This document shows positions 26,421-31,239 of a DNA stretch of 64,000 bases, piece after piece; within the stretch, counting starts at the first letter, position 1; every line of letters begins with the position of its first letter. The notes below the pieces were generated by a model, which made no database searches, was not told where the DNA came from, and saw only the letters and a list, made by a program, of their open reading frames with translations. Position numbers and translations under genes: made by a program. The stretch covers positions 29,266,001 through 29,330,000 of the forward strand of contig NC_086097.1 of the NCBI RefSeq assembly GCF_963921235.1, in the 5' to 3' direction. Source of the DNA: Mobula hypostoma. Taxonomy: Eukaryota.

Positions 26421-26528
26421 CCTTTGTTACATAGAAACATAGAAACATAGAAAATAGGTGCAGGAGTAGGCCATTCGGCCCTTCGAGCCTGCACCGCCAT
26501 TTATTATGATCATGGCTGATCATCCAAC

Positions 26529-29528
26529 TCAGAACCCAGCCTTCCCTCCATACCCCGTGACCCCTGTAGCCACAAGGGCCATATCTAACTTCCTTTTAAA
26601 CATAGCTAATGAACTGGCCTCAACAGTTTGCTGTGGCAGAGAATTCCACAGATTCACCACTCTCTGTGTGAAGAAGTTTTTCCTAACCTCGGTCCTAAAA
26701 GGCTTCCCCTCTATCCTCAAACTGTGACCCCTCGTTCTAGACCTCCCCAACATCGGGAACAATCTTCCCGCATCTAGCCTGTCCAATCCCTTTAGGATCT
26801 TATACGTTTCAATCAGATCCCCCCTCAATCTTCTAAATTCCAACGAGTACAAGCCCAGTTCATCCAGTCTTTCTTCATATGAAAGACCTGCCATCCCAGG
26901 AATCAATCTGGTGAACCTTCTTTGTACTCCCTCTATGGCAAGGATGTCTTTCCTCAGATTAGGGGACCAAAACTGCACACAATACTCCAGGTGTGGTCTC
27001 ACCAAGGCCTTGTACAACTGCAGTAGTACCTCCCTGCTCCTGTACTCGAATCCTCTCGCTATAAATGCCAGCATACCGTTCGCCTTTTTCACCGCCTGCT
27101 GTACCTGCATGCCCACTTTCAATGACTGGTGTATAATGACACCCAGGTCTCGTTGCACCTCCCCTTTTCCTAATCGGCCACCATTCAGATAATAATCTGT
27201 TTTCCTATTTTTGCCACCAAAGTGGATAACTTCACATTTATCCACATTAAATTGCATCTGCCATGAGTTTGCCCACTCACCCAACCTATCCAAGTCACCC
27301 TGCATCCTCTTAGCATCCTCCTCACTGCTAACACTGCCACCCAGCTTCGTGTCATCCGCAAACTTGGAGATGCTGCATTTAATTCCCTCATCCAAGTCAT
27401 TAATATATATTGTAAACAACTGGGGTCCCAGCACTGAGCCTTGCGGTACCCCACTAGTCACCGCCTGCCATTCTGAAAAGGTCCCGTTTATTCCCACTCT
27501 TTGCTTCCTGTCTGCTAACCAATTCTCCACCCACACCAATACCTTACCCCCAATACCATGTGCTTTAAGTTTGCACACTAATCTCCTGTGTGGGACCTTG
27601 TCAAAAGCCTTTTGAAAATCCAAATATACCACATCCACTGGTTCTCCCCTATCCACTCTACTAGTTACATCCTCAAAAAATTCTATGAGATTCGTCAGAC
27701 ATGATTTTCCTTTCACAAATCCATGCTGACTTTGTCCGATCATTTCACCGCTTTCCAAATGTGCTGTTATCACATCCTTGATAACTGACTCCAGCAGTTT
27801 CCCCACCACCGACGTTAGGCTAACCGGCCTATAATTCCCCGGTTTCTCTCTCCCTCCTTTTTTAAAAAGTGGGGTTACATTAGCCACCCTCCAATCCTCA
27901 GGAACTAGTCCAGAATCTAACGAGTTTTGAAAAATTATCACTAATGCATCCACTATTTCTTGGGCCACTTCCTTAAGCACTCTGGGATGCAGACCATCTG
28001 GCCCTGGGGATTTATCTGCCTTCAATCCCTTCAATTTACCTAACACCACTTCCCTACTAACATGTATTTCGCTCAGTTCCTCCATCTCACTGGACCCTCT
28101 GTCCCTTACTATTTCTGGAAGATTATTTATGTCCTCCTTAGTGAAGACAGAACCAAAGTAATTATTCAATTGGTCTGCCATGTCCTTGCTCCCCATAATC
28201 AATTCACCTGTTTCTGTTTGCAGGGGACCTACATTTGTCTTTATCAGTCTTTTCCTTTTTACATATCTATAAAAGCTTTTACAGTCCGTTTTTATGTTCT
28301 CTGCCAGTTTTCTCTCATAATCTTTTTTCCCCTTCCTAATTAAGCCCTTTGTCCTCCTCTGCTGAACTCTGAATTTCTCCCAGTCCTCAGGTGAGCCACT
28401 TTCTCTGGCTAATTTGTATGCTACTTCTTTGGAATTGATACTATCCCTAATTTCTCTTGTCAGCCACGGGTGCACTACCTTCCTTGATTTATTCTTTTGC
28501 CAAACTGGGATGAACAATTGTTGTAGTTCATCCATGCAACCTTTAAATGCCTGCCATTGCATATCCACCGTCAATCCTTGAAGTGTCATTTGCCAGTCTA
28601 TCTTAGCTAATTCATGTCTCATACCTTCAAAGTTACCCCTCTTTAAGTTCAGAACCTTTGTTTCTGAATTAACTACGTCACTCTCCATGTTAATGAAGAA
28701 TTCCACCATATTATGGTCACTCTTACCCAAGGGGCCTCTCACGACAAGATCGCTAATTAACCCTTCCTCATTGCTCAAAACCCAGTCCAGAATAGCCTGC
28801 TCTCTAGTCGGTTCCTCGACATGTTGGTTCAAAAAACCATCCCGCATACATTCCAAGAAATCCTCTTCCTCAGCACCTTTACCAATTTGGTTCACCCAGT
28901 CTACATGTAGATTGAAGTCACCCATTATAACTGCTGTTCCTTTATTGCACACATTTCTAATTTCCTGTTTAATACCATCTCCGACCTCACTACTACTGTT
29001 AGGTGGCCTGTACACAACTCCCAGCAGCGTCTTCTGCCCCTTAGTGTTACGCAGCTCTACCCATATCGATTCCACATCTTCCCGGCTTATGTCCTTCCTT
29101 TCTATTGCGTTAATCTCTTTTTTAACCAGCAACGCCACCCCACCTCCCCTTCCTTCGTGTCTATCCCTCCTGAATATTGAATATCCCTGAACGTTGAGCT
29201 CCCATCCCTGGTCACCCTGGAGCCATGTCTCTGTGATCCCAACTATATCATAATCATTAATAACAATCTGCACTTTCAATTCATCCACCTTATTACGAAT
29301 GCTCCTTGCATTGACACATAAAGCCTTCAGGCGCTCTTTTACAACTCTCTTAGCCCTTTTTAATGCTTGCCCTGGATTTGTCGGCCTGCCACTTTTACTT
29401 TTCCCCTTTGTACTTTTTGCTTCTACGCTCACTTTACACTCCTCTGTCTCTCTGCACTGGTTCCCATCCCTCTGTTGTGAACTAACCTCCTCACACCTAG
29501 CCGCTTTAATTTGATTCCCACCCCCCAA
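26529..29528 (-). CDS. CR1 ORF2: APE endonuclease plus reverse transcriptase (999 codons from TTG; first ATG at codon 202)
   Basis: APE motifs NARS, ITETW, YRPP, GDFN, SDH; RT motifs NYRPVSLTS, LDFQKAFD, GVPQGSVLGP, FADD. Confidence 0.97.
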   Translation of the reverse strand: MGGGNQIKAARCEEVSSQQRDGNQCRETEECKVSVEAKSTKGKSKSGRPTNPGQALKRAKRVVKERLKALCVNARSIRNKVDELKVQIVINDYDIVGITETWLQGDQGWELNVQGYSIFRRDRHEGRGGGVALLVKKEINAIERKDISREDVESIWVELRNTKGQKTLLGVVYRPPNSSSEVGDGIKQEIRNVCNKGTAVIMGDFNLHVDWVNQIGKGAEEEDFLECMRDGFLNQHVEEPTREQAILDWVLSNEEGLISDLVVRGPLGKSDHNMVEFFINMESDVVNSETKVLNLKRGNFEGMRHELAKIDWQMTLQGLTVDMQWQAFKGCMDELQQLFIPVWQKNKSRKVVHPWLTREIRDSINSKEVAYKLARESGSPEDWEKFRVQQRRTKGLIRKGKKDYERKLAENIKTDCKSFYRYVKRKRLIKTNVGPLQTETGELIMGSKDMADQLNNYFGSVFTKEDINNLPEIVRDRGSSEMEELSEIHVSREVVLGKLKGLKADKSPGPDGLHPRVLKEVAQEIVDALVIIFQNSLDSGLVPEDWRVANVTPLFKKGGREKPGNYRPVSLTSVVGKLLESVIKDVITAHLESGEMIGQSQHGFVKGKSCLTNLIEFFEDVTSRVDRGEPVDVVYLDFQKAFDKVPHRRLVCKLKAHGIGGKVLVWVENWLADRKQRVGINGTFSEWQAVTSGVPQGSVLGPQLFTIYINDLDEGIKCSISKFADDTKLGGSVSSEEDAKRMQGDLDRLGEWANSWQMQFNVDKCEVIHFGGKNRKTDYYLNGGRLGKGEVQRDLGVIIHQSLKVGMQVQQAVKKANGMLAFIARGFEYRSREVLLQLYKALVRPHLEYCVQFWSPNLRKDILAIEGVQRRFTRLIPGMAGLSYEERLDELGLYSLEFRRLRGDLIETYKILKGLDRLDAGRLFPMLGRSRTRGHSLRIEGKPFRTEVRKNFFTQRVVNLWNSLPQQTVEASSLAMFKRKLDMALVATGVTGYGGKAGF

Positions 29529-29533
29529 CCATT

Positions 29534-30469
29534 CTAGTTTAAAGTCACCTCAGTAGCCCCCGCTAATCTCCCTGCCAGGATATTGGTCCCCCTAGGATTT
29601 AAGTGTAACCCGTCCTTTTTGTACAGGTCACACCTACGCCAAAAGAGGTCCCAATGATCCAAAAACTTGAATCCCTGCCCCCTGCTCCAATCCCTCAGCC
29701 ACGCATTTATCCTCCACCTCATCGCATTCCTACTCTCACTGTCGCGTGGCACAGGCAGTAATCCCGAGATTACTACCTTTGCGGTCCTTTTTCTCAACTC
29801 CCTTCCTAGCTCCCTATATTCTTCTTTCAGGACCTCATCCCTTTTCCTACCTATGTCATTGGTACCTATATGTACCAGGACCTCTGGCTCTTCACCCTCC
29901 CACTTCAGGATATCTTGGACACGATCAGAAATATCCCGGACCCTGGCACCAGGGAGGCAAACTACCATCCGAGTCTCTGGACTGCGTCCACAGAATCGCC
30001 TATCTGACCCCCTTACTATCGAGTCCCCTATCACAACGGCCCTCCTCTTCCTTGCCCTACCCTTCTGAGCTACAGGGCCAGACTCTGTGCCGGAGGCAGG
30101 GCCACTGTCGCTTCCCCCGGGTAAGCTGTCCCCCCCAACAGTACTCAAACAGGAGTACCTGTTGTTAAGGGGCACAGCCGCCGGGGTACTCCTCATCACC
30201 TGCCTTTTCCCCTTCCCTCTCCTAACCGTGACCCACTTGTCTGCCTCCCGTGGCCCCGGCGTGACCACCTGCCTTCCACTCCTCTCTATCACCTCCTCGC
30301 TCTCCCTGACCAGACGAAGGTCATCGAGCTGCAGCTCCAGTTCCGTAACGCGGTCCCTTAGGAGCTGCATCTCGATGCACTTGGCGCAGATGTAGACGTC
30401 CGGGAGGCTTGGAGACTCCAGGGCCTCCCACATCCGACACCGAGAACAGCAAACTGCCCTCACAGTCAT
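29534..30469 (-). CDS. CR1 ORF1: zinc-finger/leucine zipper plus SGNH (GDSL) esterase domain, 311 aa from ATG at 30469
   Basis: CSRC...CAKC, heptad LRDRVTELELQLDDL, GDS, GTND and DGLH blocks. Confidence 0.93.
   Translation of the reverse strand: MTVRAVCCSRCRMWEALESPSLPDVYICAKCIEMQLLRDRVTELELQLDDLRLVRESEEVIERSGRQVVTPGPREADKWVTVRRGKGKRQVMRSTPAAVPLNNRYSCLSTVGGDSLPGGSDSGPASGTESGPVAQKGRARKRRAVVIGDSIVRGSDRRFCGRSPETRMVVCLPGARVRDISDRVQDILKWEGEEPEVLVHIGTNDIGRKRDEVLKEEYRELGRELRKRTAKVVISGLLPVPRDSESRNAMRWRINAWLRDWSRGQGFKFLDHWDLFWRRCDLYKKDGLHLNPRGTNILAGRLAGATEVTLN
29537..29543 (-). other. Candidate -1 programmed ribosomal frameshift heptamer U_UUA_AAC
   Basis: ORF1 ends acT TTA AAC TAG; ORF2 is in the -1 frame and is open only from 29549 (TGA at 29552-29550). 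Confidence 0.7.
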
Positions 30470-30631: not shown

Positions 30632-31239
30632 CCTTTTAAATCTGCCGCGCTGCACTGCCCGACGTCACACGCCTGCGCAGTCCCGCCTCTCAGAAAGCCG
30701 TTGGAGAAAAAAAAATAACGAAAATTTCAAAAATCTCTTTCTCGGCACTCCCACTCAGACTCTCAGACTCCTTCTTCGAATCAAATCCGAAGCAGGATGT
30801 CTGCCCTTTTAAATCTGCCGCGCTGCACTGCCCGACGTCACACGCCTGCGCAGTCCCGCCTCTCAGAAAGCCGTTGGAGAAAAAAAAATAACGAAAATTT
30901 CAAAAATCTCTTTCTCGGCACTCCCACTCAGACTCTCAGACTCCTTCTTCGAATCAAATCCGAAGCAGGATGTCTGCCCTTTTAAATCTGCCGCGCTGCA
31001 CTGCCCGACGTCACACGCCTGCGCAGTCCCGCCTCTCAGAAAGCCGTTGGAGAAAAAAAAATAACGAAAATTTCAAAAATCTCTTTCTCGGCACTCCCAC
31101 TCAGACTCTCAGACTCCTTCTTCGAATCAAATCCGAAGCAGGATGTCTGCCCTTTTAAATCTGCCACGCTGCACTGCCCGACGTCACACGCCTGCGCAGT
31201 CCCGCCTCTCAGAAAGCCGTTGGAGAAAAAAAAATAACG
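30632..31239 (-). promoter_or_regulatory. ~3.5 tandem 173-bp CpG-rich 5' monomers, putative internal promoter array
   Basis: Units start at 30632, 30805, 30978, 31151; one substitution noticed (31166); each carries, on minus, GAGGCGGG, TGCGCAGGCGTG, TGACGTC and ATTTAAAAG. Confidence 0.85.

Follow-up and report, generated by a model that had tools for sequence, protein, structure and literature searches.

It has long been an open question how ribosomes translate the second open reading frame (ORF2) of a LINE from its bicistronic RNA. The question applies to CR1, the LINE that dominates in birds, reptiles and many fishes. A CR1 copy from Mobula hypostoma, which lies within a 64,000-nt stretch of DNA analysed as a whole (the window), raises the question in a specific form. 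Its ORF2 is in the −1 frame relative to ORF1, is open across a slippery heptamer and has no usable start codon of its own; how, then, do ribosomes reach it? Two reviews of LINE ORF2 translation treat reinitiation, internal ribosome entry sites and 2A sequences, not frameshifting (PMC3894237 and the available text of PMC3708506).

An intact CR1 element and its ORF1–ORF2 junction

Judged by its sequence, the element is a full-length CR1-type LINE, a class assignment that rests on the ORF2 domains, the ORF1 esterase and the 3′ microsatellite (Table 1). The esterase matches Pfam PF13472 (E = 3.7e-16), ORF1 matches the ZfL2-1 ORF1p esterase (PDB 4c1b, E = 2.3e-28) and ORF1 homologues are present from rays to birds. 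In the available text of PMC13343379, the SGNH esterase is the only ORF1 type reported in vertebrate CR1 and L2. ORF2 matches PF03372 (3.5e-12), PF14529 and PF00078 (1e-33). The full-length genomic copy L098 aligns up to the 5′ limit at 31239, with offset self-matches. At the other end, the tail comprises 3.8 copies of its unit, and identity between copies stops at 26429–26432; a short microsatellite 3′ end of 8-nt units in place of poly-A has a unit that we take to be typical of CR1.

The element is intact, very young and recently active. A stretch of 501 nt around the junction is 100% identical in every one of the 40 genomic matches scored (of 1,520 first-look candidates), and other genomic copies are 99.8–99.97% identical across 3.5–4.8 kb, which indicates that the element works as it stands.

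Table 1. Features of the CR1 copy, in window coordinates; the whole element is on the minus strand
Feature	Position	Strand	Description
5′ UTR	30632..31239	−	3.5 copies of a 173-bp tandem repeat (Tandem Repeats Finder)
ORF1	29534..30469	−	311 codons + TAG; start ATG at 30469
ORF1 domains	29534..30469	−	N-terminal Cys pairs/coiled-coil region; C-terminal SGNH/GDSL esterase
TGA closing the ORF2 (−1) frame upstream	29550..29552	−	6 nt 5′ of the heptamer
Slippery heptamer T_TTA_AAC	29537..29543	−	X_XXY_YYZ phase in the ORF1 frame (codons ACT TTA AAC)
ORF1 stop codon TAG	29534..29536	−	directly 3′ of the heptamer
7-nt spacer AATGGTT	29527..29533	−	sequence differs between lineages
Conserved G-run GGGGGG T GGG	29517..29526	−	G6 begins 10 nt after the heptamer
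ORF2 frame	26529..29549	−	1006 codons; TGA stop at 26531–26529
ORF2 layout	26529..29549	−	variable basic/acidic linker, then APE endonuclease, then reverse transcriptase
First in-frame ATG of ORF2	28923..28925	−	codon 209, within the APE domain (..VIMGDFN..)
3′ UTR	26429..26528	−	8-nt microsatellite tail (TTCTATGT)n at 26457–26429

A first-pass annotation of this DNA, made from the letters alone, had drawn attention to the junction, and its description is largely borne out by the sequence and the frame coordinates. ORF1 ends GTG ACT TTA AAC TAG, ORF2 lies in the −1 frame and is closed upstream by a TGA, the two frames overlap by 16 nt (stop included) and the heptamer is in the X_XXY_YYZ phase claimed for it. 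The G-rich tract placed about 6 nt downstream is there (GGTTGGGGGGTGGG, 29530–29517, beginning 6 nt 3′ of the heptamer), as is an ATG just after the ORF1 stop (29532–29530), which is in the +1 frame and opens an 8-codon ORF (MVGGWESN). With that ATG in the wrong frame, the window element has no AUG overlapping or abutting the ORF1 stop in the ORF2 frame. The first in-frame ATG of ORF2 does fall inside the endonuclease, at codon 209 rather than at the codon 202 first reported. Between the ORF1 stop and this codon there are 13 out-of-frame ATGs, and an alignment of ORF2 N termini places the NARS and ITETW blocks, which are N-terminal APE motifs, already upstream of it.

The arrangement is more than chance, because T_TTA_AAC is the only in-phase XXXYYYZ heptamer within the 311 codons of ORF1, covers precisely the last two sense codons and recurs in the same setting in distant relatives. 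TTTAAAC occurs once in the whole 6-kb element.

Conservation of the junction among CR1 lineages

The conserved cassette reads T_TTA_AAC, stop codon, about 7 nt and a run of five or six Gs. It is also found in three other CR1 lineages of the M. hypostoma genome: in 11 of 12 loci of one (P0012-type), in 8 of 10 of a second (P0024-type) and, as TTTAAAC followed by TAA at the ORF1 end, in 7 of 12 loci of a third (P0056-type), in which three further loci, all decayed and interrupted by internal stops, are one base off. The cassette is present as well in metagenome contigs with ORF1 proteins of just 24–39% identity. The ORF1 end was readable in 20 of 42 such loci, and 12 of these read nnT TTA AAC and then TAG or TAA; one (L061) has GTTAAAC, with G for the first T, three have the motif behind a frame break and four lack it, including two in which the ORF1 match ends at query residues 180 and 189, far before the C terminus. 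The first APE match is in the −1 frame in nine metagenome loci. Contigs of two other organisms (X13 record 7 and X15 record 9) span the cassette and, among the rows listed, show no variant of at least 10% at 29504–29559 and no indel in the heptamer, which lends weak support; these sequences are assembled contigs, and their status as RNA is a guess.

Position-by-position conservation was scored across 18 representative junctions of distant lineages; because the lineages share ancestry, their counts are not statistically independent. Of the 18 junctions, 17 have a perfect heptamer, and a stop codon follows it directly in all 18 (TAG or TAA in 17, TGA in one). Positions 8–12 after the stop are G in 90–100% of junctions, and in most copies the run begins 10 nt 3′ of the heptamer (range, 8–12). 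Conservation is just 0.3–0.8 at the 36 positions upstream of the heptamer, and the commonest base reaches just 0.4–0.8 in the spacer. The first-pass annotation had named a heptamer that is not conserved among intact copies as evidence against slippage; the heptamer is conserved.

What is conserved appears at the level of nucleotides. The amino acid ahead of Leu may be Thr, Gly, Ala, Ser, Tyr, His, Cys, Phe or Asp, yet the third base of its codon is T in 17 of the 18 junctions; in the window element, TTA accounts for 17% of Leu codons, AAC for 36% of Asn codons and NNT for 22–29% of four-fold codons. Among ORF1 proteins from sharks to birds, 80 of the 88 homologues that reach the C terminus end in LN. 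In 78 of these 80, LN is preceded by a residue that NNU can encode (G, A, T, S, C, Y, D, F or I), and in the other two by E; K, Q, M and W never occur there. Across a 43-sequence ORF1 alignment, N311 never varies and conservation of L310 is 90% or higher, on a tail that differs in length and sequence. Because Leu-Asn is kept while the preceding residue varies and yet can be encoded by NNU, the pattern points to constraint on the nucleotides and not on the protein. Site and phase are thus kept among relatives at positions that are synonymous for ORF1.

Routes from ORF1 to ORF2

The explanation that we consider likely is programmed −1 ribosomal frameshifting that yields an ORF1p–ORF2p fusion. 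Ribosomes translating ORF1 would reach its last two sense codons, UUA (Leu) and AAC (Asn), after which most would meet UAG and terminate, releasing free ORF1p. A minority would slip back by one base on U_UUA_AAC, with the tRNAs re-pairing with UUU and AAA, and continue in the ORF2 frame (Leu-Glu-Trp...). The predicted product, comparable to Gag-Pol, is an ORF1p–linker–APE–RT fusion some 1,315 residues long. The sequences directly show the anatomy of the junction, an intact and young element and deep conservation; from these we infer the slippage itself, its minority frequency and the fusion as the active form of the protein. The esterase–APE–RT fusion had already been proposed in the first-pass annotation, and the comparison strongly supports it, with heptamer, phase, stop and −1 ORF2 all kept at 24–39% ORF1 identity.

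The G-quadruplex that was part of that proposal does not hold as a general stimulator. A two-tier quadruplex is possible in the window copy and in just 10 of 29 distinct junction contexts, a three-tier one in 1 of 29, and no conserved quadruplex was found; the conserved feature is a single run of five or six Gs about 10 nt after the heptamer. No stable hairpin or pseudoknot was found 5–9 nt downstream, the 137 nt 3′ of the site folding like shuffled sequences (z = −0.39), and no downstream complement to the G-run was found (z between −0.87 and +1.39 in 13 of 14 lineages). Rfam gave no match at the junction. Given that a conventional 3′ stimulator was not found, the efficiency of slippage could be very low. 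The abutting stop and the G-run, at a fixed distance of about 10 nt, belong to the conserved signal and probably modulate the slip.

Across these comparisons, the cassette appears to be ancestral to the esterase-bearing CR1 elements of jawed vertebrates. We tentatively extend this to a broader proposal, in which we have somewhat less than even confidence: that, over several hundred million years, esterase CR1 LINEs across the jawed vertebrates (rays to birds) have produced APE–RT as a Gag-Pol-like ORF1p–ORF2p fusion by means of a structure-less −1 cassette (U_UUA_AAC, abutting stop and G-run at about +10). In the same proposal, the G-run would be a novel type of linear 3′ stimulator that works either on the ribosome directly or via a factor that binds G tracts. 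More distant esterase families, in which ORF1p ends in Gln-Gly-Asn, Ser-Lys-Asn or Leu-Glu-Asn, may use G_GGA_AAC, A_AAA_AAC and G_GAA_AAC likewise. Retrotransposition of zebrafish ZfL2-1 is reported to depend little on ORF1p (cited in the available text of PMC13343379), which suggests that a related clade may be able to do without a fusion.

Alternatively, some ribosomes that terminate on ORF1 may restart in the ORF2 frame at or near its stop, on an AUG or a non-AUG codon, making a separate ORF2p, with the stop and the G-run as the restart signal. Such reinitiation would account for the conservation of the stop codon and of a G-run at a fixed distance, and it has precedents in SART1 (UAAUG plus a downstream structure) and L1 (available text of PMC3708506; PMC3894237), including reinitiation without an AUG in human L1 (cited in the available text of PMC3708506). 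It is the main rival, and a live one, given the lineages in which an in-frame AUG sits at the stop: the lack of an available AUG, claimed in the first-pass annotation, is true of the window element but not of relatives with TAATG, in which the AUG overlaps the stop (8 of 10 P0024-type loci), or TAGnnATG in the ORF2 frame (contigs L055, L059 and L065). However, an in-frame AUG close to the stop is missing from most lineages, among them the highly successful window family, and the early near-cognate codons differ by lineage (TTG in the window copy; TTG and GTG in two others). A long ORF1 (311 codons) disfavours ordinary reinitiation, as argued in PMC3894237, and neither the folding nor the G-run complement analysis revealed a downstream structure that would promote a restart. 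Reinitiation also leaves unexplained why TTA, AAC and the preceding third-position T (17 of 18 junctions) are frozen at synonymous positions while the residue before Leu varies. We therefore regard it as unlikely.

A much less probable explanation is dual coding without recoding, in which ribosomes begin ORF2 within the overlap, 5′ of the heptamer, through internal entry or at a codon other than AUG, and TTTAAAC is frozen because it encodes Leu-Asn of ORF1p and Phe-Lys of ORF2p. Every lineage does read Phe-Lys-Leu in the −1 frame over the heptamer, and a loosely conserved x-x-x-Gly-x-Gly comes next, but the heptamer and the TA of the stop codon already force Phe-Lys-Leu. In most lineages just 10–22 nt separate the opening of the −1 frame from the ORF1 stop, and in the window copy the frame opens 13 nt ahead of the heptamer's end; this short stretch contains no AUG or conserved start codon. 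A conserved functional ORF2 N terminus is also unlikely because a hypervariable linker of about 30–130 residues follows Phe-Lys-Leu.

We give hardly any credence to a change of frame in the RNA (through slippage during transcription, editing or a splice between ORF1 and ORF2) or to a dead-copy accident. In four copies or gene models (L052, L111, P0036 and P0121), gain or loss at one base of a poly-G just before the heptamer does bring the two frames together, but this poly-G is not conserved, no homopolymer precedes the stop in the window family, a polypyrimidine tract and a conserved splice signal are both absent and, as weaker evidence, the contig rows listed contain neither a heptamer indel nor an ORF1-to-ORF2 joint and just five longer proteins were found, chimeric-looking gene models and no fused family. 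The dead-copy accident is excluded by the 40 identical copies and the deep conservation.

A prior description of the CR1 frameshift cassette was not found in the literature searched. If programmed frameshifting is correct, the conserved cassette offers a concrete, testable answer to how ORF2 is translated for a whole clade. The fusion would tie the reverse transcriptase to ORF1p and its own RNA, providing a basis for cis-preference, the efficiency of the slip would set the ORF1p:ORF2p ratio, and a new class of frameshift stimulator may be exposed. For annotation, a CR1 ORF2 that lacks an AUG would be no sign of decay, and an intact cassette would flag candidate active copies.

Comparison with known recoding and reinitiation systems

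The frameshift site of coronavirus ORF1a/1b is U_UUA_AAC, identical to the CR1 heptamer. Like both this system and Gag-Pol of retroviruses and LTR retrotransposons, the CR1 junction has a canonical heptamer in the zero-frame phase X_XXY_YYZ at the end of the upstream gene, a polymerase gene in the −1 frame without its own start codon and, as predicted here, a minority fusion that would set the ratio of structural protein to enzyme. Unlike in either system, the zero-frame stop directly abuts the heptamer, and a single-stranded run of five or six Gs about 10 nt downstream takes the place of a hairpin or pseudoknot at 5–9 nt. CR1 also differs from the Gag-Pol systems in that the host element is a non-LTR retrotransposon without Gag.

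The arterivirus PRRSV and cardioviruses have protein-dependent −1/−2 frameshift sites, and the PRRSV stimulator is a linear motif rather than a fold. A minority of stimulators sit 12–15 nt 3′ of the site and act with trans-acting factors, according to the available text of a 2016 review (PMC5009743). CR1 resembles the arterivirus and cardiovirus sites in having its putative 3′ stimulator further off than a classical pseudoknot, a likeness that we offer as a lead, and differs from them in that its motif is G-rich, not C-rich or a hairpin. Frameshifting is also mentioned there for gag of Drosophila HeT-A, which, like CR1, is APE-type and LINE-like, with overlapping frames at the end of ORF1; HeT-A belongs to a different clade, and the text available does not describe a U_UUA_AAC–stop–G-run cassette for it.

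Within LINEs, a functional comparison can be made with SART1 of Bombyx and human L1 (available text of PMC3708506; PMC3894237). As in CR1, the LINE RNA is bicistronic, expression of ORF2 hinges on events at the ORF1 stop and, as would hold for CR1 under frameshifting, ORF2 output is low; the UAAUG of SART1 is even matched by TAATG in the related P0024-type CR1 lineage. SART1 and L1, however, make a separate ORF2p and need no slippery site, whereas in CR1 the slippery heptamer is the most conserved feature and the AUG is missing in most lineages.

The element and its ORF1–ORF2 junction

The minus strand of the window carries one complete non-LTR retrotransposon. Its ORF1 protein (ORF1p) contains an SGNH/GDSL esterase domain (PF13472, E 3.7e-16); among the relatives of this domain, a structure has been solved only for the ZfL2-1 esterase, from a zebrafish L2 element (4c1b, E 2.3e-28). 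The ORF2 protein (ORF2p) has APE endonuclease and reverse transcriptase (RT) domains. Because it combines an esterase ORF1, an APE–RT ORF2 and an octamer tail, we identify the element as a CR1-type LINE. The repeat copies in its 5′ UTR are 99% alike and form an array reminiscent of monomeric LINE promoters; in the available text of a 2026 survey of the vertebrate CR1 group, 5′ arrays of this kind are mentioned only for elements that lack ORF1 (PMC13343379).

Features of the CR1-type element and its ORF junction
Feature	Position	Strand	Description
5′ UTR	31239–30632	minus	3.5 copies of a 173-bp tandem repeat
ORF1	ATG 30469 to TAG 29536–29534	minus	311 codons
Upstream TGA	29552–29550	minus	closes the ORF2 frame
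Heptamer T_TTA_AAC	29543–29537	minus	X_XXY_YYZ phase
ORF2	29549–26529	minus	1006 codons
Earliest in-frame ORF2 ATG	28925–28923	minus	codon 209
3′ UTR	tail 26457–26429	minus	terminal (TTCTATGT)n

The named protein closest to ORF1p is uncharacterised and comes from Mobula hypostoma (98% identical). Another relative (P0022, 59% identical) sits on a 4.2-kb contig under the name ‘SGNH/GDSL hydrolase family protein [Pseudomonas aeruginosa]’; contamination of a bacterial assembly with vertebrate DNA is the probable explanation. In rays and sawfish, models of host genes also incorporate pieces of CR1 ORF1 (P0026, P0064, P0066 and P0122); these models, with names such as ‘40S ribosomal protein S24 isoform X2’ and ‘transmembrane protein 204 isoform’, are likely annotation chimeras.

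The first-pass annotation had proposed that ORF2 is reached by a −1 ribosomal frameshift at U_UUA_AAC, and its reading of the junction agrees with the sequence in all but one point. ORF1 ends in ACT TTA AAC TAG and ORF2 lies in the −1 frame, with an overlap of 16 nt because a TGA closes the ORF2 frame upstream. The correctly phased heptamer is the only one in ORF1, and TTTAAAC occurs once in the whole element. The ATG beyond the ORF1 stop opens eight codons in the +1 frame, and GGTTGGGGGGTGGG begins 6 nt downstream of the heptamer. The earliest in-frame ATG of ORF2, placed by that annotation at codon 202, is codon 209, and 13 out-of-frame ATGs precede it. Initiation there had been expected to remove most of the APE domain; in our alignment it is the N-terminal portion of the endonuclease that would be lost, and with it the conserved NARS and ITETW blocks.

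A 501-nt junction probe gave 1520 candidates in the 3.48-Gb genome; 40 of these were scored, and every one is 100% identical. Of four copies retrieved over longer stretches, three are 5′-truncated and one is full length; they retain 99.8–99.97% identity across 3.5–4.8 kb, and identity between copies stops at 26429–26432. Very recent copying is thus evident in a family whose ORF2 is AUG-less and frame-shifted. More than 15 additional 5′-truncated CR1-like ORF2 fragments are scattered over the window (9000–63700; 24–63% identical to ORF2p), none of which reaches the ORF1–ORF2 junction. Genome-wide, ORF1 probes return about 60,000 to 130,000 first-look candidates.

Conservation of the junction

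We aligned 18 representative junctions on the heptamer and calculated base frequencies. The commonest base reaches 0.3–0.8 at the 36 upstream positions and 0.4–0.8 at the seven spacer positions after the stop, and positions 8–12 after the stop are 90–100% G. The stop codon is present in 18 of 18 junctions (TAG or TAA in 17, TGA in one). The heptamer, whose conservation among relatives the first-pass annotation had named as a check on its proposal, is perfect in 17. Across all copies that carry the G-run, it starts mostly 10 nt after the heptamer (range, 8–12). These position-by-position frequencies, with the distance to the G-run, define a conserved unit consisting of T_TTA_AAC, a stop codon, about seven variable nucleotides and G5–6.

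The codon before the terminal Leu specifies Thr, Gly, Ala, Ser, Tyr, His, Cys, Phe or Asp depending on the lineage, yet its third base is T in 17 of the 18 junctions. The junction Leu is always TTA and the Asn always AAC; in the element, TTA makes up 17% of Leu codons, AAC 36% of Asn codons and NNT 22–29% of four-fold codons. Selection at the junction thus appears to work on nucleotides. We compared 120 database homologues of ORF1p, taken from rays, sharks, coelacanth, frogs, turtles, squamates and birds. The C terminus is reached in 88, of which 80 end in Leu-Asn. The preceding residue can be encoded by NNU in 78 of the 80, and Lys, Gln, Met and Trp are never seen. In an alignment of 43 sequences, the terminal Asn is as invariant as the catalytic Asp and His, on a tail that varies in length and sequence.

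Three other CR1 lineages of the same genome were retrieved with ORF1 proteins of other species as probes. ORF1 ends in GGT TTA AAC followed by TAG or TAA in 11 of 12 loci of the P0012-type lineage and in GAT TTA AAC TAA in 8 of 10 loci of the P0024-type. In the P0056-type, whose copies are old and have internal stops, GCT TTA AAC TAA is present in 7 of 12 loci; three differ by one base, and in two our procedure did not reach the ORF1 end. The −1 frame opens 10–22 nt upstream of the ORF1 stop in most copies of all three lineages.

Scanning metagenome contigs with an ORF1 profile yielded 42 loci with an ORF1 24–39% identical to that of the window; two of them come closest, among named proteins, to one from a hummingbird (53%) and one from a turtle (48%). 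ORF1 continues past the contig end in 22 loci. The remaining 20 were classified: 12 end in nnT TTA AAC TAG or TAA and one in GTTAAAC, three have the motif behind a frame break or with a mutated stop, and four are without the heptamer–stop–G-run cassette (in two of the four, the ORF1 match ends far before the C terminus). The first endonuclease match is in the −1 frame in nine loci; in six it is in another frame, and these loci have broken ORFs. No ORF1 relative was found in a viral contig collection.

Searching 1.84 billion cluster representatives with a profile added 82 proteins that reach the C terminus, with the endings LN (40), GN (8, seven with a preceding Gln), SN (2), KN (1), EN (1) and other (30). 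More distant ORF1 esterases terminate in Gln-Gly-Asn (seven), Ser-Gly-Asn, Ser-Lys-Asn or Leu-Glu-Asn (P0178, P0179, P0191, P0196, P0198, P0200, P0211, P0230, P0233 and P0234). Judging from protein, G_GGA_AAC, A_AAA_AAC and G_GAA_AAC would be compatible with the QGN, SKN and LEN endings, respectively, which could mark other A_AAC slippery heptamers adjoining the stop. The QGN-ending families have no close relative in the Mobula hypostoma genome, in which the best matches are 33–44% identical and of the LN type, and an alternative heptamer–stop at the ORF1 end was found in none of the loci examined.

Routes to ORF2p

U_UUA_AAC belongs to the most efficient class of eukaryotic slippery heptamers. 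We consider programmed −1 frameshifting the probable mechanism of ORF2 translation, because the pattern is exactly predicted by frameshifting and by no rival: a heptamer on the last two ORF1 codons, frozen at synonymous sites in distant lineages, and a polymerase frame that is always −1 and usually without an AUG. The predicted fusion would run through the terminal Leu-Asn of ORF1p into Leu-Glu-Trp, then through a variable charged linker (about 80 residues in the window element and 30–130 in other lineages) and into the endonuclease and reverse transcriptase.

The main rival, termination–reinitiation at the ORF1 stop, is a possible but much less likely source of ORF2p. It would suit the P0024-type lineage (L101–L110), in which the ATG of a TAATG is in the ORF2 frame and overlaps the ORF1 stop, as in SART1, for which the available text gives exactly UAAUG as the stop–start (PMC3708506); three metagenome contigs (L055, L059 and L065) have TAGnnATG. 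However, an in-frame AUG near the stop is missing in most lineages, including the highly successful window family, and reinitiation does not explain the frozen heptamer. The window family appears related to the TAATG lineage because their downstream linkers are similar, and frameshifting and reinitiation could coexist. The P0024-type junction has its TAATG alongside a retained slippery heptamer and G-run. A frame change at the RNA level, or an accident of dead copies, is unlikely. In four runs of assembled contigs, for which the label ‘RNA’ is a guess, low-depth joints lie inside ORF1.

One contig from another organism, in run X17, has a 221-nt skip in the ORF2 linker just past the G-run (window 29291–29513), which may represent a shorter-linker subfamily or an assembly artefact. 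At loci L052 (around position 2436) and L111 (position 155) and in proteins P0036 and P0121, the poly-G run immediately before the heptamer differs in length by one base, which places ORF1 and ORF2 in a single frame (..Gly-Phe-Lys-Leu..). One such copy in the Mobula hypostoma genome has an open frame of 1097 codons, and P0121, from Hypanus sabinus, carries the annotation ‘hydroxyacid oxidase 2 isoform X1’. A search for families with in-frame fused esterase–APE–RT proteins found only five longer proteins, all chimeric-looking gene models, and such families were rejected.

Composition of the signal and comparison with known systems

The abutting stop and the G-run at fixed distance clearly belong to the signal. 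A downstream hairpin or pseudoknot was rejected, as the minimum free energy of the 137 nt after the site is no better than that of shuffled sequences (z −0.39). Within 300 nt downstream, a complement to the G-run was not found in 13 of 14 lineages (z −0.87 to +1.39); the other gave a z of −3.15. The main proposal of the first-pass annotation, the frameshift, is well supported comparatively, but its suggested G-quadruplex is rejected as a general stimulator: the window copy could form a two-tier quadruplex, but only 10 of 29 distinct junction contexts could do so. Rfam gave three sub-threshold matches over the whole element (E up to 1), with zero at the junction. By analogy, the G-run may act as a linear element; the available text of a 2016 recoding review describes a minority of sites at which stimulators 12–15 nt away act together with trans-acting factors (PMC5009743).

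A full-text literature search, from which the first chicken and turtle CR1 papers were absent, found no proposal of CR1 frameshifting at U_UUA_AAC; those papers may already have commented on the overlap or even have raised frameshifting. Among non-LTR elements, the available part of the recoding review names only HeT-A, TART and L1 (PMC5009743), and a review of non-LTR protein biogenesis does not mention frameshifting (PMC3894237). In the portions available, the terms frameshift, overlap, slippery and stop codon are absent from the 2026 survey (PMC13343379) and, together with fused and fusion, from a paper on ORF1 modularity (PMC4120745), as are frameshift and overlap from the ZfL2-1 esterase structure paper (PMC3905857). 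The frameshift idea bears on how LINEs make ORF2p and is directly testable. The signal looks like canonical −1 frameshifting in a major LINE clade, unusual in that it is without an RNA fold.
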